Assembly: GCA_041389825.1 (NCBI GenBank)
Contig: JAWKRC010000007.1
Span: forward strand, 253,093-307,118
From: Polyangiales bacterium
GTDB lineage: Bacteria > Myxococcota_A > Polyangia > Polyangiales > Ga0077539
Direction of reading: 5' to 3'
Length of the DNA stretch: 54,026 nucleotides
Every line of letters begins with the position of its first letter. Positions within the stretch are counted from its first letter, which is position 1. Made by a program: the position numbers and the translations under genes. Shown here in pieces: positions 9,983-37,709 of this stretch. Below the pieces are notes generated by a model. That model saw only the letters and a program-made list of their open reading frames with translations, was not told the DNA's origin and did not search any database.

Positions 9983-11545
9983 ATGTCAGCCTCGGCAGAC
10001 ACCCACGCCCACGAGCGCCCCTCGGGCGGGTTCGCCCTCGCGGCGTACTACTTCAACTCGCTCCCGCCCACGCGCTTCCTCCTCGTCGCGGTGCCCGTAA
10101 CCGCGGTGCTGGTGAAGGTGCACGCGTCGCCCGTCGCGCTCTTCATCGCCAGCGCGCTCGCGGTGCTCTCGCTGGTCACGGCCATCGGCAAGGCCACCGA
10201 GGAGGTCTCGCTCTACACCAACCCCACCATCGGCGGCCTGCTCAACGCGACCTTCGGCAACGTCACCGAGCTCATCATCGCGATCTTCGCGCTGCGCCAG
10301 GGCCTGCACGAGCTCGTGAAGGCGAGCCTCGTCGGCTCGATCCTCGGCAACCTTCTCTTCCTCCTGGGCGCGGCGATGATCGCGGGCGGCGCGAAGTACC
10401 CGACGCAGACCTTCTCGCGCACGGGGTCGAGCACCTCGGTCGCGATGCTCGCGCTCGCGCTCATCGCCATCGTGATCCCCGCGGTGGCCGCGCACGGCTC
10501 GCTCCTCGACCCGGCCCTCGCCGCGAGGCCCGAGCTCGGGCCGAAGATCCTCCACCACTCCTCGGTGGGCATCTCGATCATCCTGCTCGCGGTCTACGCG
10601 CTGTCGCTCCTGTTCTCGCTGAAGACGCACCGCGCGATCCTCTCGGCCGACCCGCACGACATCGAGGAGCACCCCGAGTGGAGCCTGCGCTTCGCCATCG
10701 TCGCCCTCCTCGCCGTCACCGTGTGCGTCGGGTGGATCAGCGACGTCTTCGTCGAGGCCATCGAGGCGCTGCTCCGGGAGCACCCGATCTTCACGCACTC
10801 GTTCATGGGCGTGATCGTGGTGGCCCTGGTGGGCAACGCCGCCGAGGGCAGCGTGGCGATCTGGGTCGCGCGCGAGAACAAGATGGAGCTGTCGTTCCAG
10901 GTGGCGATGGGGTCGTGCATCCAGGTGGCGCTCTTCGTGGCGCCGATGCTGGTGCTGATGTCTCAGTTCGTGGGCCCTCACCCGATGAACCTCGACTTCA
11001 ACATCGTCGAGACCGTGGCGATGTGGGCGAGCGTTCTGATCGCGTCGCTCGCGCTGCAAGACGGCGAGAGCAACTGGTTCGAGGGCGTGATGTTCGTCGC
11101 GGTCTACGTGATGTTCGCGCTGGTGTTCTTCTTCCACCCGTCGCCGCGCGGCCGGCGAGGGCGCAACCGACCGCGTTGGCGTGCCCGCACCAACGGTGCG
11201 GACGACGGCAGCGGCGTGCCCGCACCGACGGTGCGGACGACGGCAGCGGCGTGCCCGCACCGACGGTGCAGACGACGGGGGTCGCGTGAGTGGTTGGCCT
11301 CACCCCGCGCCCCTCTCCCGCGTGCGGGAAGGGGAGCTGGCTTCACCGAAAACTGCCACGCCCCTTCTGGAAAAGGTGGCGTTGGGGAGAACTGCGATGC
11401 AGTGCCCTCGGCCTGCGAGTTCACCTCGCCGACGTGGTCGGGGATCTCCTCCGCAGGTCACGACGCACGCCTGCCCAACGCGGAAGGTCAGGGCAGTTTT
11501 CGGTGCACTTCGCTCCCTCTCCCGCACGCGGGAGAAAGCGGGTGA
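9983..11545 (+). CDS. Ca2+/H+ antiporter (CaCA/ChaA family); the annotated 3' end reads through tandem repeats into a MITE-like element
   Basis: Paired GNVTELIIAI and GNAAEGSVAI alpha-repeat motifs, 10-11 TM helices. The native protein probably ends soon after VFFFHPS (about 11150). There is no stop until 11545, inside the inverted-repeat element. Confidence 0.75.
   Translation: MSASADTHAHERPSGGFALAAYYFNSLPPTRFLLVAVPVTAVLVKVHASPVALFIASALAVLSLVTAIGKATEEVSLYTNPTIGGLLNATFGNVTELIIAIFALRQGLHELVKASLVGSILGNLLFLLGAAMIAGGAKYPTQTFSRTGSSTSVAMLALALIAIVIPAVAAHGSLLDPALAARPELGPKILHHSSVGISIILLAVYALSLLFSLKTHRAILSADPHDIEEHPEWSLRFAIVALLAVTVCVGWISDVFVEAIEALLREHPIFTHSFMGVIVVALVGNAAEGSVAIWVARENKMELSFQVAMGSCIQVALFVAPMLVLMSQFVGPHPMNLDFNIVETVAMWASVLIASLALQDGESNWFEGVMFVAVYVMFALVFFFHPSPRGRRGRNRPRWRARTNGADDGSGVPAPTVRTTAAACPHRRCRRRGSREWLASPRAPLPRAGRGAGFTENCHAPSGKGGVGENCDAVPSACEFTSPTWSGISSAGHDARLPNAEGQGSFRCTSLPLPHAGESG
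11181..11283. repeat. 35-bp direct tandem repeat, about 2.7 copies (tgcccgcaccgacggtgcggacgacggcagcggcg)
   Basis: Seen directly in the sequence. It lies between the last TM helix of the antiporter and the MITE-like element. Confidence 0.7.
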
Positions 11546-11553
11546 GGCCAACC
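11292..11553. mobile_element. MITE-like element, copy 1 (about 262 bp, terminal inverted repeats ggttggcctcacccc / ggggtgaggccaacc, subterminal hairpins ccctctcccgcgtgcgggagaggg)
   Basis: The ends are inverted repeats. It shares about 75-85% identity in blocks (gccctcggcc..gagttca; cacgacg.acgcc.tcccaacgcggaaggtcagggcagttttcggtg) with the second copy at 17119-17381. It has no coding capacity. Confidence 0.6.
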
Positions 11554-11698
11554 GCCCGCTCGCGACCACCAACCGCCCGGGGATGAGGACCAACCGCGCA
11601 CCGCTCGCTCTTGACCGCCATGCGACCGGGGGTGCGGGCCGCGCCCTCTCGCACTCACTGCGCGACCGCGGCTGCGCTCCACCGCCCCACGCCTCTCA

Positions 11699-14407
11699 TC
11701 ACCCCGTCGTGCACAGGCCGCTCGCGATGGCGTTCACCGACAGGAGCACGGTGGGCGTCATCGCCTCGGCCGCGGCCTCGTCGCCCGCCTCGCGCAGCGC
11801 CCGCCACTCGCGCAGCGCGCTCACCTGGAACGCGTGCAGCCGGCGCAGCCCCGCGTCGCGGGCTTGCAGCGTGCGCCACATCCGCGGTCGCCGCGCCTGA
11901 AGCGACGAGCCGAAGAGCGCGTCGAGGGCCTCGCGGGTGCGCGTGAGCTCGTCGCGGCACAGCCACGAGAAGCGCTCGCGCACGGCCTCGTCGGGGACGA
12001 GCGAGGCGTAGAGGTCCATGAGCTCGGGGTCGGCCGAGGCGAGGCAGGCCTCGACGTTGGTGAGCACGTACCGCAGGAAGGGCCACGACCGCGCGCCGTC
12101 GGCGAGCGCGCTGAAGGCCTTGGCGTCGCGGCGCGAGAGCGCGTCGAGGGCCGCGCCCACGCCGTACCAGCCGGGCAGGTAGTGACGGGCCTGGTTCCAC
12201 GAGAAGACCCAGGGGATCGCGCGGAGGTCTTCGAGCGTGCGCTTGCCGCGCCGCCGCGCGGGGCGCGAACCGATGTTGGATTTCTCCAGCGCGTCGATGG
12301 GCGTCGCCCACGAGTAGTAGTCGATGAAGCCCTCGGCCTCGACCAGCGCGCGGTACGCGCGACGTCCCTCGGCGGCGAGCTCGGCGACCACCGGGTCGAG
12401 CGGGTGGCGCGGGTCGCCGTCGCGGCGGTGGCGCGCGGTCGCGGCCGCGGTGCCCGCGAGGAGGAGCTCGAGGTTGTACGCAGCCGTCAGCGGGTTGGCG
12501 TACTTCTGCGCGATCACCTCGCCCTGCTCGGTCACGCGCAGCGCTCCCTGCACCGTGCCCGGCGGCAGCGCCTCGAGGAAGCGGTGCGTCGGCCCCGCCC
12601 CGCGGCTCACCGTGCCCCCTCGCCCGTGGAAGAAGCGCAAGCGCGCGCCCCGCGACCGCGCCGCGTCGGTGAGCGCGACCTGGGCCTCGCGCAATCCCCA
12701 CTGGCTCGCGAGGATGCCGCCGTCCTTGCACGAGTCGCTGTAGCCCACCATCACCTGCTGCACGCCGCCGCGCGCCGCGAGGCTCCGCCGCGTGATCGGG
12801 TGATCGAGGAAGGCCCCCAGCACCTCGGGCCCCGCCGCGAGGTCATCCACGGTCTCGAAGAGCGGCACCACCTCGAGGTCGCACACGAGCCCCTCGGGCG
12901 TGCTGCGCGCGAGCCCCACCTCACGCGCGAGAACGTACACCGCGAGGAGGTCCGACGCGCCGCGGGTCATGCTCACGATGAGCGCGCCGAGCCCGCCGAC
13001 GCCGTGCGCGTCGCGGTGCGCCGCGAGCACCCGGAAGCACTCGAGCGTCGCCCTCGCCTCGTCGTTGAGCGCCGCCCCCGGGAGCACCAGCGGGCGCGTG
13101 CGTCGCAGCTCCTCCTCCAACAGCGCGCGCCGACGGTCTTCGGGCCACGCCGCGAAGCCCTCGGCCTCGACGCCCGCCGCGGCGAGCATCGACGCCAGGG
13201 CCTTGTCGTGAAAGCCGCTGTTCTGCCGCACGTCGAGCGCGGCGAGGTGAAAGCCGAAGACCTCCGCGGCGCGGTCGACCGGGTCGAGGTCGCCCTCGGC
13301 GACGCGGGTCGCGCCCACCGCGATCAGCGACGCTCGCAAGAGCGCGAGGTCTCGACGGAGCTCGTCGGGTCGCGCGTAGCGAGCGCCCTCGGGCGCCGCG
13401 CCTCCGGGCAGCCGCTCACGCATCAACCGCGCGAACTGCCGCCACGGCTCGTCGGTGTCGCGCGAGAGCACCTCGTGACCGACGGCCCCGCACGCCTCGG
13501 CCGCCTCGGCGAGCGCGCGGGAGAGCGCGTCGGTGGGCCGCTGCACCAGCGACGAGAGGCTCAGCCCCTGCGCGAGCGCGTCGAGGTTCTCGCGGTGCAG
13601 GCTCACCGCCGCGTCGCGGAGCTCACGGAGCGCGTCGCGCGTGGTGTCGGCGGTGACGAGGGGGTGTCCGTCGCGGTCTCCGCCCACCCACGAGCCGAAG
13701 CGCAAGGTCGGGAGCGCGCCGCGGTGCAGCGCGTTCGGGTCGAAGCCCACCTCGCGCCACGCGTCACGCAGCCTTCGCTCCACCGGGGGCAGCACCCGCG
13801 GGAACACGTCGCGCAGGTAGTGCAGCGCGCCCTTGCGCTCGGCGGCGACCTCGGGCTTCTGCAAGAGGAACTCCCCGGTGCGCCAGAGGCGTTCGAGGGC
13901 GAGCTTGATCTCCTCGCGGATCGCGGCCTGCTCGCGCGGCGTGAACATCCGGTTCTCGCGGCGCACGAGGAGGAGGTACAGCGCGCGGTGCTGCTCGATC
14001 GCGACGGCGCGGCGGGCCTCGGTGGGGTGCGCGGTGAGCACGGGCTCGACGACGCAGGCGTCGAAGGCGTCGACGACCTCGGCCTCGGAGAAGCCCGCCT
14101 CGCGGAGCTGCCGCAGGTTCTGCCCCCACGATCCGGGCTCACGGAGCGTGCCTTCTGCGGACTCGCGCGCGCGGCGGGCCTGCGTCGCGGCGTTCTCCTC
14201 GACCATGTTCAAGAGGTGGAACGCGAGCGTGCGCACGTGCACCTCGCGCTCGGTCACGCGCTCCGGCGGAGGCGCGTCGGGGTCGAGGCTGCGCGCGCCG
14301 TCGACCTCTCCCACCTCTTCGAGCACCTCACGCAGACACGCGAGGAGGAAGGCGTGGTCGTCGTCGGACTTGTCGAGCTCCTCGGCGGGCGTGGCGGCGT
14401 CGTTCAT
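11699..14407 (-). CDS. ppc: Phosphoenolpyruvate carboxylase
   Basis: VMVGYSDSCKDGG (PEPC signature 2) and the C-terminal ...NAIASGLCTTG (canonical PEPC C-terminus), about 900 aa. ATG at codon 8 of ORF 11699..14428. Confidence 0.9.
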   Translation of the reverse strand: MNDAATPAEELDKSDDDHAFLLACLREVLEEVGEVDGARSLDPDAPPPERVTEREVHVRTLAFHLLNMVEENAATQARRARESAEGTLREPGSWGQNLRQLREAGFSEAEVVDAFDACVVEPVLTAHPTEARRAVAIEQHRALYLLLVRRENRMFTPREQAAIREEIKLALERLWRTGEFLLQKPEVAAERKGALHYLRDVFPRVLPPVERRLRDAWREVGFDPNALHRGALPTLRFGSWVGGDRDGHPLVTADTTRDALRELRDAAVSLHRENLDALAQGLSLSSLVQRPTDALSRALAEAAEACGAVGHEVLSRDTDEPWRQFARLMRERLPGGAAPEGARYARPDELRRDLALLRASLIAVGATRVAEGDLDPVDRAAEVFGFHLAALDVRQNSGFHDKALASMLAAAGVEAEGFAAWPEDRRRALLEEELRRTRPLVLPGAALNDEARATLECFRVLAAHRDAHGVGGLGALIVSMTRGASDLLAVYVLAREVGLARSTPEGLVCDLEVVPLFETVDDLAAGPEVLGAFLDHPITRRSLAARGGVQQVMVGYSDSCKDGGILASQWGLREAQVALTDAARSRGARLRFFHGRGGTVSRGAGPTHRFLEALPPGTVQGALRVTEQGEVIAQKYANPLTAAYNLELLLAGTAAATARHRRDGDPRHPLDPVVAELAAEGRRAYRALVEAEGFIDYYSWATPIDALEKSNIGSRPARRRGKRTLEDLRAIPWVFSWNQARHYLPGWYGVGAALDALSRRDAKAFSALADGARSWPFLRYVLTNVEACLASADPELMDLYASLVPDEAVRERFSWLCRDELTRTREALDALFGSSLQARRPRMWRTLQARDAGLRRLHAFQVSALREWRALREAGDEAAAEAMTPTVLLSVNAIASGLCTTG

Positions 14408-14467
14408 GGCGGCAACCTGTGTAGGCACGATGCCGACGCGCCGCGAGTGTCATCGCGAAGAAATGGA

Positions 14468-14626
14468 GTTCGACCTCAGTTCGGGTGGGGTCAACCCCAG
14501 CTCGGGTGGGGTCAACCTCAGTTCAGGTGAGGTCGACCTCAGCTCGGGTGAGGTCAACCTCAGCTCGGGTGAGGTCAACCTCAGCTCGGGTGGGGTTGAC
14601 CTCAGCTCGGGTGCGGTTGGCCTCCA
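14468..14626. repeat. 21-bp tandem repeat array, about 7.5 copies (consensus tcaacctcagctcgggtgagg)
   Basis: Directly visible in the sequence. It sits in the divergent intergenic region between the ppc start (14407, minus) and the lipoprotein gene start (14708, plus). It is not interrupted by spacers. Confidence 0.8.
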
Positions 14627-14707
14627 TCGCGGTGGTCACGACGCTCACGTCTGCGGTCACTGTGGCCCCACTTGCGAGCCGCGGAGCCGCTGTCGCAAGG
14701 TGCCCCC

Positions 14708-15657
14708 ATGCTCCGCCGCGCACGCTCCGCGACCGTCGTCTTCGCACTCGCCCTCGCCGCGTCGTCGGGGTGCAGCCGCGAGCGGAGCCCGTCGCGCCCC
14801 GCGATGAGCCCGGTGCTCGCCGCGTCCCCTGCCCTCGATCGGCGCGCCGCGAACGAGGAGCTCGTCGACCTCGCCGCCGATGGGCGCGCGCTCGTCGCGC
14901 GTGAGCTCCCCGCGCCGGAGAACAGCGACGCCGACCGGGTGATCGCCGCGCGCGTGCTCCCGCCCGACGCGCAAGGAGAGGTGACCGCGCTCGGAGACGT
15001 GCTCGACGCGCGCTTCATCCCGAGCACCCGCGCGCTACTCGTCATCACCCGCGACCACCACCTCGAACGACGCGACGGGACCACGCGCACCGCGATCGAC
15101 GAGCACGTCTTCGGCCCGCTCTCCCTCGACGCCGTCGGCCGCTACGCGGTCTACACCCGCGGAGAGGTGCCCGACCTCGCGCTGGCGCGCGTCGACCTCA
15201 CGACGAACCGCGCCGAAGCCGTCGCGCCGACGCTCGTCCCCGCGTGGAGCCCGGCGATCTCTCCCGACGGCGCCGAGGTGGTGGTGGTCGCGAGCATCGA
15301 GGAACGCCCGCGCTCTACCGCGTGCGTCCCGGTGAAGCGCCGCGCCGCTGGGAGACGCCTCCCGACGCCGTGCTCCCCGGCGGAGGCCCCACCGCGCCCG
15401 TGGTCTTCGGCGACACGCTGGTCTTCGAAGACGCCGCGGGCCTGCGCACGCTGGTGATCGACGGCCCCGCGCGCGGCCGAGCGACGTCGATCCCCGGCGC
15501 GTTCCGCCCCGTGGCGCGTCCCAACGGGCGTGGCTTCGTCGCGCAGCGTCGTGACCTCGCGAGCGCGCCCGCGGCCGACCCGACCCAACCCGGGATGGCC
15601 GGCGTCGGAGGCGTGGTCACGTTGCGCCTCGTCGCTCCGGCCGAGGTGACGCGGTGA
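14708..15657 (+). CDS. TolB-like beta-propeller lipoprotein, apparent frameshift near 15300-15315
   Basis: ATG at 14708 gives MLRRARSATVVFALALAASSGC (signal peptide plus lipobox). The propeller-like repeats (YAVYTRGEVPDLALARVDL...WSPAISPDGAEVVVVASIEE) continue in the frame of ORF 15244..15657 (PALYRVRPGEAPRRWE...VVFGDTLVFEDAAGLRTLVIDG) after a 1-nt shift. Confidence 0.5.
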
Positions 15658-17036
15658 CGACGCGGCGCTCGCTCACCATCGCGCTCGCGGCGCTGAGCTT
15701 CGGCGCCCTCGCGACGGGGCAGGTGCGTCACCGACGTCCGCTCTCGCCCGCGCCCGACATCCGCTACGGCTTCGACAACACCTCGGGATCGGGCTGCCGC
15801 GACTACAATTGCGGCTCGCGCTGCTACGACGGCCACCGTGGGACGGACTTCCCGGTCGGGATCGGGACCGCGGTGCTCGCGTCGGCGAACGGCACGGTGG
15901 TCGCGACGAACAACGGCTGCCCGAACTACGGCGGCCTCGGCTCCACCTGCGGCGGTCGCTGCGGCAACTACGTGCAGATCCAACACTCCGACGGGACGCG
16001 TACGCTCTTCTGCCACATGCAGCTCAACTCCATCTCGGTGCGCCGCGGTCAGCGCGTCACCTGCGGGCAACAGCTCGGTCGCTCGGCCTCGTCGGGCAAC
16101 TCCTCGGGCCCGCACCTGCACCTCTCGTGGCAGCGGAGCGGCGTGTCGTACGACGCCTTCCGCGGGCGATGCACCAGCGCGCCCGGCATCTGGACCTCGC
16201 AGGGCTCCTACCCCCACAGCCCCGGCGCGACCTGCGCGTGCGTGCCGAGCGCGGAGACCTGCAACAACCGCGACGACGACTGCGACGGGCGCGTCGACGA
16301 CAACCTCTCGCGCGGGTGCTACACGGGCGCCGCGAGCACGCGCAACCGAGGCGTGTGCCGCGACGGGCGGCAGACCTGCGGCGCGGGTCGCTGGGGCGCG
16401 TGCGCGGGGCAGACGCTCCCGAGCGCGGAGGCGTGCAACAACCGCGACGACGACTGCGACGGGCGCGTCGACGAGGGCCTCGCGCGCGAGTGCTACACGG
16501 GCCCCGCGAACACGCAGGGTCGCGGGATCTGCCGCGCGGGGCGACAGACTTGCGGCGCGGGCCGATGGGGCGCGTGCGCGGGGCAGGTCGTTCCGCGCGC
16601 CGAGACCTGCAACGGGATGGACGACGACTGCGACGGACGGGTGGACGAGGGCGTGTGCCCAGCGGACGCCGGGCCTCCGCGCGACGCGGGCGCCGACGTG
16701 CGCGACGCGAGCGGGGACGTCGCCGTCGACTCGGGAGAGGATGACGACGCGGGCTTCGACGACGACGCGGGCTTCGACGATGACGCGAGCGTCGAGGACG
16801 ACGCCGCGGTCGACGACGACGCGAGCGTCGGAGATGACGCCGCGGTGGACGATGACGTGGTGGAGTTCGACGACGTGCCCTTCGAGGACGACGCCGACGT
16901 GTCGCCGGACGACCCGCTCCCGCCGGAGCAGGACGGCTGCGGGTGCCGCGCGGGCGCGCCGCGGACCCCGGGGTGGCTCGGCGTGCTCGGGCTCGGGGCG
17001 CTCGTGGCCCTGGTGCGCCGCCGCCGACGTCGCTGA
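15654..17036 (+). CDS. M23 (LytM-type) metallopeptidase with three tandem Cys-rich (CNNRDDDCDGRVDE) repeats, a poly-acidic linker and a MYXO-CTERM sorting tail
   Basis: Signal peptide, then HRGTDF ... HLHLS zinc motifs of M23 peptidases. Three near-identical 43-aa repeats follow, then a D/A/V-rich acidic region. The C-terminus GCGCRAGAPRTPGWLGVLGLGALVALVRRRRRR is a MYXO-CTERM. Confidence 0.8.
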   Translation: MTTRRSLTIALAALSFGALATGQVRHRRPLSPAPDIRYGFDNTSGSGCRDYNCGSRCYDGHRGTDFPVGIGTAVLASANGTVVATNNGCPNYGGLGSTCGGRCGNYVQIQHSDGTRTLFCHMQLNSISVRRGQRVTCGQQLGRSASSGNSSGPHLHLSWQRSGVSYDAFRGRCTSAPGIWTSQGSYPHSPGATCACVPSAETCNNRDDDCDGRVDDNLSRGCYTGAASTRNRGVCRDGRQTCGAGRWGACAGQTLPSAEACNNRDDDCDGRVDEGLARECYTGPANTQGRGICRAGRQTCGAGRWGACAGQVVPRAETCNGMDDDCDGRVDEGVCPADAGPPRDAGADVRDASGDVAVDSGEDDDAGFDDDAGFDDDASVEDDAAVDDDASVGDDAAVDDDVVEFDDVPFEDDADVSPDDPLPPEQDGCGCRAGAPRTPGWLGVLGLGALVALVRRRRRR

Positions 17037-17118: not shown

Positions 17119-17381
17119 GGGCCCTCACCCCCAACGCCCCTCTCCCGCGTGCGAGAGAGGAGCTGACTGCACCGAGAACTGCAGCGCCCCTTCTGGGAAG
17201 GATGAGTGAGTGAGCGCTGCGAGGCCGTGCCCTCGGCCAGTGAGTTCAGCGCTCCGCCGTGCGCGGCGACCTCCACCGTAGGCCACGACGTACGCCCTCC
17301 CAACGCGGAAGGTCAGGGCAGTTTTCGGTGAAGACGGCTCCCCTCTCCCGCGTGCGGGAGAGGGGCGTGGGGTGAGGGCCA
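17119..17381. mobile_element. MITE-like element, copy 2 (inverted repeats gggccctcaccccc / ggggtgagggcc; same subterminal hairpin ccctctcccgcgtgcgggagaggg)
   Basis: It is homologous to copy 1. It lies in the convergent intergenic region between the M23 peptidase gene and rplI. Confidence 0.6.
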
Positions 17382-17486
17382 CTGCCCCACGCGCGGACGA
17401 CGGGCTGCGCGCAACCGCCGTGCCCCCTCCCGTGTTCGAGAGGGGCCTCGGGGCTGACGAGGAAGGCGGGGAGAGAGAAGCGCTGG

Positions 17487-35588: not shown

Positions 35589-36772
35589 ATGCAACGCCCC
35601 CGCAGCGCCGCCTCGCTCCTCCTGGCGCTCCCCTCGCCTTCGTCGCCTTCGTCGCGGTGTTCGCGGTGCGTCACGCGCTGGGCCAGCGACGGCTCCGCGC
35701 CCTCGACGCGAAGATCACCCCGGCCATCGCGCGGCTCTCCCGCGAGCGCTGGGAGCGCCCCGTCCTGCGCGGCGCGGCCGTCGACGCCAACGCGTGGGTG
35801 GGCCTCGTCGACGCGAGCGTGCGCGCGTCGCGGCAGTTCCCCCAGCGCGGCCACGCCGACTTCGACGCCGCCCTCGAAGCGGGCCGAGACCTTCCCGCCT
35901 CGTGGACGCAGCGCGTGACCCCCGCGCGCGACGCGCTCGCCGCGCTCCGCGCCGCCACGCAGCGCTCCTGGTCGTGGAACCCCTCGCCCGTCCCCGCGCC
36001 CTCGGCGCCGATGCCGCCGCTCGGCGACGTGGCGCGCGCGTCTCGCGGGCTGCTCACGCAAGCCCTCGCCTCGCCGCCCGCGGAGTGCCTCGCCATCTGC
36101 GCCGACGTGGTCCGCGTCGGTCAGGACTTCTCCGCGGGGCAAGGCCCCCTCGGCCTCGCGATGGAGGGCCTGCTCTCTCGCCTCGCCGTCGCCGCCGCGC
36201 GGCGCTGCGCGGCCACCGCCGACGCCGACGCGCGCGCCCACGCCACGACGGAGTTCAGCGCCCTGCACCGCGCCTGGAGGCCGCTCGGCGCCTTCAAGGC
36301 GGTCGACACCCTGGGCATCGCGCGCGCCGTGGTGACGGAGCTCGACGCGGGGCTCCCGCCCGCGGGCCTCCAGCGCCTCGCCTACCTCTGGTACCGCCCC
36401 GACGCGATCGAGCGCATCGCGTGGACCGTCGACCAGCTCCCCCGCTGGCGCTCAGCAGGCGCGACGGGCGACGACCCCGCCGCGCTCGACCGCCTCGTCG
36501 AGGAGGAGAACGCGCGACTGATGGGCAACGACATCACGCAGATGGTCGCGGCGGCCTTCGGCCGGATCATCGAACGCGGTCGCTCCGGTCGCGCGTGGGT
36601 GGGCGCGATGGCGGCGGCCCTGAGCGGCCCGGGAGCGTCGATGGCCGACCCCTTCTCCACGGCGCCCGTCGCCGTGACCCGCGACGCGAGCGGGGTCACC
36701 GCGCGCTCCGTCGGCCCCGACCGGCGCGCGGGCACCACCGACGACGTGGTGGTCACCCTCCCCGCGCCGTAG
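35589..36772 (+). CDS. Hypothetical protein with N-terminal signal-anchor, probable 1-nt frameshift near 35630
   Basis: ORF 35657..36772 (371 aa) has no recognisable domain. Upstream, ORF 35589 begins MQRPRSAASLLLALP, and a 1-nt shift at a cccc run continues it as LAFVAFVAVFAVRHALGQ, which gives a classic N-terminal TM anchor. Confidence 0.45.
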
Positions 36773-36790
36773 GGACGAAACACCGCCTGG

Positions 36791-36935
36791 GCAGGGGAGT
36801 TTCATCACAGGGCCTGGGATGTTTCATCCCTGCCCGGAGGGGTTTCATCTCAGGGTCTGGGATGTTTCATCCCTGCCCGGAGGGGTTTCATCTCAGGGGT
36901 TGGGAGGTTTCCTCCCTGCCCTGGGAGGATTCCTC
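36791..36935. repeat. 43-bp tandem repeat, about 3.5 copies (gggatgtttcatccctgcccggaggggtttcatctcagggtct)
   Basis: Seen directly in the sequence. It is relatively AT-rich. It lies in the convergent intergenic region between the 35657..36772 gene and the FGE-domain gene. Confidence 0.8.
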
Positions 36936-36956: not shown

Positions 36957-37709
36957 TCAGCGCAGGTCGGCGCAGCAGCGGAAGCCCGTGGAGTAGTCGT
37001 GGTAGCCCGGGTTGTGCGCGCGCGTGGCGTAGTCGCACCCGGGGCGGTTCTGGTGCACGTCGACGTAGTACCCGCCGCGGAACACCCCTCGGCCTCCGCG
37101 GGTGCGCGCCTCGACCCACTCGTGGAGGTTGCCCACCATGTCGAAGGCCCCGAAGCCGCTGCGGCAGCGCGGGTGCGAGCCGCTGCGCGCGAGGGTGTTC
37201 GGCATCTGGTTGAGCCTGGGGTCGTTCATCTGCGACTCGTGGAAGACGTCCCCCGGCCCGTAGAGCAGCGGCACCGGCCCGACGCGGCCGTCGTTGCAGC
37301 GCCCGCGCACGTAGGTGTCGCCGTAGGGCCACTGCGTCGGGTTGCGCCCCTTGCACGCGCGCACCCACTCCACCTCGGTGCAGAGCCGCTTGTGCGCCGC
37401 CGCGCAGGCCGCGCGGGCCTGCACCTGCGAGATGTACCCCTGGGGCGACCGCCCCCTGCGCGACTCGGCCCGGTACCGCACGCCCACCCGCGGGGGAATG
37501 AACGGGCTCCACGGCCGCGTGCGCCCGCGCGGCAGGAGCTCGACCAGCGAGCCCTCGTACGCGTCGACGCAGTACTGCCCCTCGACGTTGACCGTCCCCG
37601 GCGGGCACCGACGTCGTCGGCGCGGCACGAGCCCCGTGAGCACGCACGACAGCGCCACCAGGGCGATCAGGGCGCCCTCCCTCCGGGGCGATCGACGGAG
37701 CTCAACCAC
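36957..37709 (-). CDS. Formylglycine-generating enzyme (FGE/SUMF1) domain protein with N-terminal TM anchor
   Basis: DMVGNLHEWV, GGYY and HNPGYHDYSTGFRCC are hallmark FGE-sulfatase domain motifs. An N-terminal hydrophobic segment (ALIALVALSCVLTGLV) is present. Confidence 0.8.
   Translation of the reverse strand: MVELRRSPRREGALIALVALSCVLTGLVPRRRRRCPPGTVNVEGQYCVDAYEGSLVELLPRGRTRPWSPFIPPRVGVRYRAESRRGRSPQGYISQVQARAACAAAHKRLCTEVEWVRACKGRNPTQWPYGDTYVRGRCNDGRVGPVPLLYGPGDVFHESQMNDPRLNQMPNTLARSGSHPRCRSGFGAFDMVGNLHEWVEARTRGGRGVFRGGYYVDVHQNRPGCDYATRAHNPGYHDYSTGFRCCADLR

Follow-up and report, generated by a model that had tools for sequence, protein, structure and literature searches.

A lineage-restricted palindromic minisatellite between the divergent ppc and lipoprotein genes of a Polyangiales bacterium

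Plasmid iterons, which are bound cooperatively by their initiator, are represented by seven 22-bp repeats in the gamma origin of R6K and by repeats of 17–22 bp in RK2 and pPS10, while mycobacterial interspersed repetitive units (MIRUs), which belong to the intergenic minisatellites or variable-number tandem repeats (VNTRs), are 40–100 bp long, lie inside operons and contain small overlapping open reading frames (ORFs). In Myxococcus xanthus, the sites of PexR are tandem interrupted palindromes (CACCG-n6-CGGTG) present in 3–6 copies in the katB and ahpC-pexR intergenic regions, on which the protein forms ladder-like cooperative complexes (PMC12754779). Repetitive extragenic palindromes (REPs) and bacterial interspersed mosaic elements (BIMEs) are built on imperfect palindromes of 20–40 bp with a GTAG or CGTC tag, and clusters of them reiterated head to tail have been documented (PMC3733652). 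The element described here is a tandem array of 21-bp units in a 54-kb stretch of a Polyangiales metagenome-assembled genome (MAG), where it occupies the intergenic region between ppc, the gene of phosphoenolpyruvate carboxylase, and a divergently oriented probable lipoprotein gene (Table 1). The whole stretch is referred to as the window, and coordinates count from its first letter. The array is a lineage-restricted, non-coding, palindromic minisatellite with fast turnover, the sequence of which has been exchanged between loci; whole units appear to have been gained and lost, and the units are homogenised within each array.

The array resembles the PexR sites in being myxobacterial, in consisting of short interrupted palindromes arranged head to tail upstream of divergent genes, and in having a dyad that implies binding of a dimer. 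It differs from them in its half-sites, in its spacer (7 nt instead of the 6 of PexR) and in its number and uniformity of units, which are 7–8 and nearly identical here, whereas the 3–6 units of PexR are diverged. Neither a sigma-54 promoter nor an adjacent regulator gene was found at the present locus, and its units, known from sequence alone, behave like those of a minisatellite, with whole-unit change in one array and the same unit at different loci in two genomes. REPs and BIMEs likewise consist of GC-rich stem-loop units of about 20 bp which are strictly extragenic, tandem, lineage-specific and variable between close relatives, and the unit described here is a strictly intergenic 19-bp dyad with 91.7% of stem cells paired. 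However, REPs occur in tens to hundreds of copies, while the present family is apparently of very low copy number, has a single orientation and almost no linker, carries no GTAG or CGTC tag, and is accompanied by no REP-associated transposase (RAYT, Y1) among the 24 window ORFs scanned with Pfam, which include every ORF within 7 kb of the array. Plasmid iterons share with it the 7–8 direct repeats and the period of 21–22 bp, or about two helical turns, but the array lies on the core chromosome with no rep gene among the ORFs scanned, no DnaA box, no AT-rich unwinding element and no plasmid or phage match. It is similar to MIRUs and other VNTRs in its intergenic tandem units, in whole-unit differences between near-identical genomes and in homogenisation within the array; unlike MIRUs, its unit is a non-coding palindrome of 21 bp between divergent genes. 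No description of this repeat was found in the literature; by its sequence the array forms a new family, within the already known general class of intergenic palindromic tandem repeats or operator-like arrays.

Dyad units at the ppc locus and in a sister genome

The array was detected by Tandem Repeats Finder (TRF) with 87% matches, no indels and a score of 213, which places it among the strongest short-period arrays of the window, and a repeat search of the window gave seven copies in register. The consensus 21-mer GGTCAACCTCAGCTCGGGTGA has 6 matches at up to 3 mismatches, all within the array and spaced exactly 21 bp apart, while no match was found outside the array in the 54 kb or in 100 dinucleotide-preserving shuffles. 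An earlier note on this DNA had placed a 21-bp array in the interval between the two start codons, and both the array and the limits of that interval are confirmed, the ATG of ppc being located at 14407 on the minus strand and that of the lipoprotein gene (MLRRARSATVVFALALAASSGCS) at 14708; neither flanking ORF is able to extend into the array. The run of seven units begins 59 bp from the ppc start codon and stops 90 bp from the lipoprotein start codon, and G+C is 0.60–0.66 over the array versus 0.70–0.82 in its flanks.

Table 1. Features of the ppc–lipoprotein intergenic region and its flanking genes in the window
Feature	Position	Strand	Basis
Intergenic region, 300 bp, between the divergent start codons of ppc (minus) and the probable lipoprotein gene (plus)	14408..14707		ORFs, translations
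ppc, phosphoenolpyruvate carboxylase, 902 aa	11699..14407	-	PF00311, E=5e-226
ppc-proximal leader or promoter segment	14408..14450	-	Sole ppc-side part conserved with the sister
Tandem array, period 21, 7.2 copies, consensus GAGGTCAACCTCAGCTCGGGT	14466..14617	+	TRF; 6 matches versus 0 expected; 7 in-register copies
Seven contiguous 21-nt units, starting at 14472, 14493, 14514, 14535, 14556, 14577 and 14598	14472..14618	+	Parsing as N-ACCYCA-N7-TGRGGT-N
Decayed eighth unit GGCCTCCATCGCGGTGGTCAC, lipoprotein-proximal edge of the array	14619..14639	+	Sequence reading; edge copy 71% identical
Lipoprotein-proximal upstream segment, conserved with the sister, where it lies behind the 229-aa gene, away from the array	14653..14707	+	blastn, 84%
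Probable lipoprotein gene, signal peptide and lipobox	14708..15657	+	Translation; no family assigned

Each unit is an interrupted inverted repeat, ACCYCA-N7-TGRGGT, a symmetry overlooked by the earlier note. In the unit layout N-ACCYCA-N7-TGRGGT-N, a dyad of 6–7 bp encloses a 7-nt spacer, and 2 nt form the linker to the next unit; the pattern has 6 exact matches in the window versus 0 expected. Since the unit is nearly self-complementary, the whole array constitutes a long quasi-palindrome. As a single strand it folds at -112 kcal/mol on the plus strand (z -8.8 against shuffles) and at -88 kcal/mol on the minus strand (z -7.3), and the single units of the window fold as hairpins with a stem of 6–7 bp and a 7-nt loop (-4.4 to -10.5 kcal/mol).

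For the ppc product of the window, a Polyangiales MAG contains a protein of 100% identity, while the next relative reaches 87% and all others at most 62%. The 87% relative belongs to GCA_023428035.1 ('Proteobacteria bacterium OH_CBlB_99'), here called the sister, of which the ppc locus was taken from four assemblies (L013–L016). In blastn, L013 127–2499 is aligned with window 17033–14653 and L013 5132–7864 with window 14431–11699 at 84–88% nucleotide identity. Between these syntenic blocks nothing is alignable: the window has 221 bp, essentially the array, versus 2.6 kb in the sister, which comprise a 229-aa gene, a Trp_DMAT prenyltransferase gene, a 59-aa ORF and a tandem array. This sister array (L013 4842–5030; about 8 copies with a period of 22) is located on the same ppc side and in the same orientation as that of the window, and its units (GGGGTTGAACCCCAGGGAGGTT and GGGGTTGAACCTCAAGCTTGTT) have the same arms and the same 7-nt spacing with another loop and linker, all eight of them fitting ACCYCA-N7-TGRGGT. 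Three of the sister assemblies, 99.8–99.97% identical at this locus, each carry the same 8 units. The three genes at L013 2538–4775, which encode the 59-aa ORF product, a 384-aa Trp_DMAT-family aromatic prenyltransferase and the 229-aa protein, stand between the sister array and the lipoprotein gene and are missing from the window (corresponding to about 14640–14652), so that the array sits at the edge of an indel, beside a gained or lost block of 2.4 kb.

The window-type 21-mer recurs at another locus of the same sister. When 185,579 species-representative genomes were scanned for RACCTCAGCTCGGGTGNGGT, 11 loci were returned, ten of which are single matches in unrelated phyla (approximately the number expected by chance), while the remaining one, L011, is a tandem array with 8.4 copies of the window-type 21-mer on another contig of the sister MAG. 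Only this one contig of the sister MAG is matched by the 21-mer pattern, a count that refers to the 21-mer type and to a MAG, in which repeats tend to be lost. The array is the only sequence shared by L011 and the window, the flanks of the arrays at these unrelated loci having nothing in common, and a mobile element with shared flanks was rejected on this ground. The window unit type, loop and linker included, is thus found upstream of ppc in the window and elsewhere in the sister, whose ppc site is occupied by a different type; copying or conversion between loci is therefore required.

The L011 locus was also taken from four assemblies, two of which have 8 units and one (ERZ27268836) 7, while the Logan contig ends inside the array. 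Between the 7-unit and the 8-unit version, 3,926 bp are aligned with 0 mismatches and a single 21-bp gap, which is exactly one unit; this difference may be an assembly artefact. The earlier note had named an invariant copy number together with a 21-mer present nowhere else as grounds for refuting it, and it is refuted on neither count: the 21-mer is confined to the array within the window and is found at L011 in the sister genome, and the copy number differs there, although it is constant at the ppc locus of the sister. In addition, the L011 array contains one 22-bp unit (a 1-nt indel) and a 64-bp higher-order repeat, the latter of which, together with the decayed edge units and the difference in unit number, amounts to minisatellite dynamics. 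The two Logan contigs of the sister (L016 1–60 and the 3' end of L026) both end inside the tandem arrays; since repeats of this type interrupt assembly at the unitig level, public short-read assemblies probably contain too few of them.

The constraints on the unit were assessed on 23 units, namely 7 from the window, 8 from L011 and 8 from the sister ppc locus (L013). All 23 fit ACCYCA-N7-TGRGGT with an arm spacer of exactly 7 nt and a linker of 2 or 3 nt, and nine arm positions are invariant throughout. Between the 21-mer and the 22-mer types, the arms differ by 0.09 per site (0.007 if the single covarying pair is left out) and the loop by 0.69 per site, and within the sister ppc array the corresponding values are 0.045 for the arms and 0.49 for the loops. 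The dyad arms and their 7-bp spacing are thus held constant, with the loop and the linker free to vary. One stem position is variable (C:G, U:A or U.G) and is unpaired in 2 of the 19 distinct units. Stem covariation does not exceed that of column shuffles (76 of 500 shuffles) and therefore gives no proof of selection at the RNA level; the arms are conserved in sequence, not just in pairing, which fits base-specific recognition. The functional unit is probably the 19-bp dyad with its fixed 7-bp spacing rather than the 21-bp period, since the period is 22 in the sister ppc array and in one unit of L011. The same observation weakens the argument of the earlier note that 21 bp, being two helical turns, would present every copy on one face of the helix.

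Beyond the sister, the array was not encountered. The JGI metagenomes scanned gave one solitary match, which lies inside a long ORF and is attributed to chance, and neither viral contigs nor 72,556 plasmids gave a match. Two more distant ppc loci, with spacers of 47 bp and 400 bp, have no such array upstream of ppc; a conserved ppc regulatory element was hence rejected, as the array is not kept beyond the genus. The 400-bp spacer contains as its sole repeat an 11-bp motif in 3.7 copies (GCTGATCCACC; L018 2354–2394, upstream of ppc), while a 14-bp motif in 5 copies (GGGGATCGCGGAAC; L017 5409–5478) is located downstream of ppc at the other locus. Short intergenic arrays thus seem to be common in these high-G+C lineages.

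Candidate functions of the array

The array may consist of DNA sites bound by a dimeric, sequence-specific protein whose gene lies elsewhere in the genome, and would then be a cooperative operator or upstream activating sequence over the divergent upstream region of ppc and the lipoprotein operon. This is the explanation that we tentatively place first, at somewhat less than even chances. The arms would be constrained since each dyad is the site of such a dimer, and on the 7–8 adjacent dyads, which lie about two turns of the helix apart, the protein would assemble cooperatively into a filament or oligomer. This assembly would cover the upstream DNA that ppc has in common with the divergent lipoprotein/M23-peptidase gene cluster, where the bound protein could activate or silence the promoters, as the enhancer-binding protein PexR does in Myxococcus xanthus, and a change in copy number would tune occupancy. 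A dimeric binder is favoured because the arm sequence is invariant rather than merely complementary, because the arm spacing is fixed, because the array stays upstream of ppc despite the neighbouring three-gene indel, and because tandem interrupted palindromes have been proven by experiment to work in this way with PexR of Myxococcus; the period of 21–22 bp, close to two helical turns, was also counted in its favour, as was the exclusion of a coding repeat, of known RNA families and of a replicon or centromere. Cooperative binding by a regulator had been proposed in the earlier note, and the proposal gains plausibility from the dyad symmetry, the conserved arms and the PexR precedent, although no regulator gene, recognisable promoter or regulon was found. 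If the dyads are indeed protein sites, the locus would be one of the few natural operator arrays close to a promoter in which units turn over as in a minisatellite while the recognition arms stay fixed. A central anaplerotic (carbon-fixing) gene would then possess, in a myxobacterial lineage that is uncultured, an inbuilt and heritable means of adjustment.

Several observations weigh against an operator array. No sigma-70-like or sigma-54-like promoter is recognisable near any of the three arrays, the best weighted score for a sigma-54 -24/-12 element (TGGCAC-N5-TTGC) being at most 16 of 20.5 at the three loci with a crude scoring that yields about 23 background hits per kb. No candidate regulator gene is common to the three array loci, no solitary dyad occurs elsewhere in the window or in the loci examined, so that no regulon is visible, and the two distant ppc loci lack the array. 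With a period of 22 bp, 8 units do not stay in phase with the helix. The window-type unit, with its unconstrained loop and linker, is found at an unrelated sister locus, which implies that it was copied from one locus to another, a behaviour more typical of a repeat family than of an operator. The same genome also contains further palindromic tandem arrays and a family of miniature inverted-repeat transposable elements (MITEs), and palindromic repeat DNA is therefore a general feature there. Finally, the plus-strand hairpin is more stable than the minus-strand one in 22 of the 23 units, and T.G intermediates outnumber C/A by 7 to 1 across the units; both give a hint of selection on one strand, which is not statistically secure because the units are not independent.

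The strongest competing explanation, which we regard as possible though unlikely, is that of a REP-like hairpin minisatellite with no dedicated regulatory role, where a stem-loop (6–7 bp stem, 7-nt loop) would reach new intergenic sites when it is copied or transferred by gene conversion, and would multiply locally through slippage or unequal crossing-over. The arms would be kept since propagation needs them, either for hairpin-promoted slippage or for a hairpin-recognising enzyme, and ppc would be affected at most as a side effect of DNA or RNA structure or of promoter spacing. The behaviour of the repeat agrees with this, as the same 21-mer with its loop and linker occurs at an unrelated sister locus without shared flanks, otherwise identical L011 assemblies differ by one unit, the edge units are decayed, L011 has its 64-bp higher-order repeat, and the arrays lie at indel or hypervariable junctions. 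The window furthermore contains two other palindromic tandem arrays and two MITE-like copies, of which at least the array and the MITE copy in the spacer between the Na/Ca-exchanger gene and ppc are absent from the sister; head-to-tail reiterated clusters are documented for REPs (PMC3733652), and the plus-strand wobble-pair bias fits selection on a single strand. The distribution of the repeat argues in the other direction, with a very low copy number (one locus in 54 kb and one sister contig for the 21-mer type) and all three arrays sharing one orientation upstream of a gene, none being located between convergent genes. Where a REP would carry its GTAG or CGTC tag, the stem borders on CA, TGA or TCT linkers and on the neighbouring stem, neither a RAYT nor any other transposase was identified among the window ORFs scanned, and covariation is not significant. 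A hairpin minisatellite and an operator array are not fully exclusive of one another, nor are the remaining explanations. Should the array be only REP-like, its value would be practical, as it marks hypervariable intergenic DNA, breaks short-read assemblies and might serve as a strain marker; no long-standing open question is touched under either of the two.

A transcribed hairpin array, that is, a 5' leader or small RNA in which 7–8 stem-loops act in stability, processing, pausing or termination or as a protein sponge, is improbable. Each unit can fold alone (-4 to -11 kcal/mol), with the sense strand more stable in 22/23 units, the array as a whole is far more stable than its shuffles on either strand (z = -8.8 for plus, z = -7.3 for minus), and at all three loci the strand with the more stable hairpins is sense to the gene that follows downstream. 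The last unit of L011 together with a T-rich tract behind the ParA-like gene is terminator-like, and the loops of the sister 22-mer, which read GGGAGGT, carry the GGA motif. A sponge that reads the loop is unlikely because the loop sequence differs between unit types. The window has no match to an Rfam 15 family at gathering score, and at E values up to 10 only generic long-hairpin matches to eukaryotic miRNA precursors, far below threshold, were obtained. Neither a promoter nor a terminator was found in the intergenic region of the window, and the arm sequence is invariant instead of covarying freely, with no significant covariation. A comparably small chance is given to a so far undescribed class of low-copy, spacer-less tandem hairpin or dyad arrays in Polyangiales, which would be modular cis-elements that pass from one promoter region to another, vary by entire units and have a dedicated dyad- or hairpin-binding reader, their copy number setting the expression of the neighbouring gene, here ppc.

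The earlier note had also considered a contingency locus tuning promoter spacing, that is, phase variation in which gain or loss of a 21-bp unit would alter promoter geometry and switch ppc or the lipoprotein operon, and we consider this quite improbable. The position of the window array between divergent start codons suits such a switch, and 7 versus 8 units were found at L011 in assemblies with 0 mismatches over 3.9 kb. That difference does not, however, demonstrate phase-variable gene control; it was seen at another locus in another genome, may be an effect of assembly, and is not paralleled at the ppc locus, where the array has 8 units in all three sister assemblies. A whole-unit change of 21 bp would make a poor switch because it keeps the helical phase, classical contingency repeats have much shorter units, and ppc is a housekeeping anaplerotic gene rather than a surface or virulence gene.

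Replication iterons, or the partition centromere of an integrated or ancestral plasmid-like element, are highly improbable, and the term 'iteron' used by the earlier note does not hold in its strict sense. The resemblance to plasmid iterons consists in the 7–8 direct repeats of 21–22 bp, and a centromere is suggested by the gene of a ParA-superfamily ATPase that ends 83 bp before the L011 array. The window is, however, core chromosome (rplI, rpsR, rpsF, pth, rplY, fumarase, ppc); the ORFs scanned across it belong to ribosomal-protein, metabolic, transporter and other non-replication families of Pfam, with no rep, parB or parR gene among them. No TTATCCACA-like DnaA box (up to 1 mismatch) was found in 14000–15200, the lowest G+C over 40 bp of the spacer is 52.5%, which leaves no AT-rich unwinding element, and no plasmid or viral contig matched. 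The ParA-like gene is the second gene of a cross-phylum cassette which elsewhere has downstream spacers of about 100 bp and differing neighbours, with no room for an array; a partition centromere was rejected as the regions downstream of the cassette homologues are short, unrelated and array-free.

A CRISPR array, dismissed already by the earlier note, was rejected as the units abut with a linker of 2–3 nt and no spacers, and no Cas family was identified among the 24 ORFs. A protein-coding heptad repeat, (SSGEVNL)n, has a negligible chance, as the earlier note likewise held, because the reading frames rotate with the 22-bp period of the sister ppc array and the 1-nt indel of L011. Over the window array, none of the three forward frames is much interrupted, third-position G+C is high in the VNLSSGE frame, and the ATG at 14463 opens an ORF of 114 codons, but this candidate ORF would overlap the lipoprotein start out of frame, and it has no homologue among 5.8 billion proteins (word-index search), with only generic heptad-repeat proteins among 1.84 billion representatives (exhaustive HMMER search).

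Neighbouring genes and other repeats

On the ppc side, synteny with the sister ends at window 14431 in blastn, and the local alignment of this flank covers about 43 nt, with none of 300 shuffles scoring as well. The lipoprotein gene is frameshifted near 15300–15310 relative to the intact 311-aa orthologue of the sister, the change of frame being located between the tblastx segments 14771–15310 and 15301–15651; it is either a pseudogene or the product of an assembly error. Neither the lipoprotein nor its intact 311-aa orthologue has a Pfam or NCBIfam match that would back the 'TolB-like' label of the earlier note. The following M23-peptidase gene (15654–17036) contains a 174-bp repeat in 2.4 copies (window 16241–16652; counterpart at L013 518–919), which encodes repeated MopE-type putative metal-binding motifs (PF11617) and is kept in the sister orthologue.

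The window contains, in the spacer that separates the Na/Ca-exchanger gene from the 3' end of ppc, a tandem repeat of 35 bp in 2.9 copies (11178–11278; 96% matches) with the palindrome CCGCACCGACGGTGCGG. The corresponding spacer of the sister is 157 bp long and lacks this repeat, and the exchanger stop codon of the sister (..CACCCGTAG) is replaced in the window, where the ORF continues to 11545. Two MITE-like copies of about 280 bp, approximately 82% identical (11283–11562 and about 17125–17385), bracket the ppc–array–lipoprotein–M23 block, copy 1 being absent from the syntenic spacer of the sister. The element has long terminal inverted repeats (..GGCCTCACCCC..CCCTCTCCCGCGTGCGGGA..) and folds over its whole length as a single hairpin, with an energy of -104.7 kcal/mol as DNA (z -9.7). 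At both of its ends (11292–11305 and 11540–11553), copy 1 reads GGGTGAGGCCAACC and matches the junction GGGTGAGGTCAACC of the 21-mer array at 13 of 14 positions, where 0.32 hits per window are expected by chance at up to 2 mismatches, and three CCAACCGC motifs follow at 21-bp spacing (11546–11610). A link of the array to the MITE-like element was rejected, as copy 2 has no matching CCAACC part; the likeness is probably a coincidence, with a decayed array as a conceivable alternative.

A further tandem array, unrelated to the 21-mer, is located at 36789–36932 (period 43, or about 21+22; 2.9 copies; 92% matches). It consists of GGGATG-TTT-CATCCC-type hairpins, has a folding energy of -107 kcal/mol (z -7.2) and is flanked by the convergent ORFs 35657–36772 (plus) and 36957–37709 (minus), whose 3' ends face it; no further copy was found in the window or in the loci examined.

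The ParA-like gene next to the L011 array belongs to a two-gene cassette (L011 1094–3128, and L019–L022), in which a protein of about 400 aa with Schlafen AlbA_2 and HATPase_c_4 domains is encoded with a 4-nt overlap with a ParA-superfamily ATPase of about 330 aa, the latter containing the atypical Walker A motif KGGVGET. The cassette occurs in Nitrospirota, Bacillota, Acidobacteriota, Verrucomicrobiota, Planctomycetota and other phyla at 57–60% identity, its first gene is split into two ORFs in the sister MAG, and it looks like a horizontally spread module of unassigned function. Just downstream of the ParA-like gene, the last array unit followed by GCCTATTTCT (L011 829–855, minus) scores as an intrinsic-terminator-like site (3 overlapping calls versus 0.2 expected). 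The sole faintly array-like match of the exhaustive protein search, P0272, is a called 205-aa 'protein' of LSSGQLN/LSSAELT repeats on a 63-kb contig of JGI metagenome 3300067032, which, as judged at the protein level only, looks like a translated 42-bp tandem repeat. It adjoins a 206-aa ORF and is followed 2 kb on by an AlbA_2 gene, an arrangement resembling that of L011, where the array, a 208-aa ORF and the AlbA_2 cassette succeed one another.

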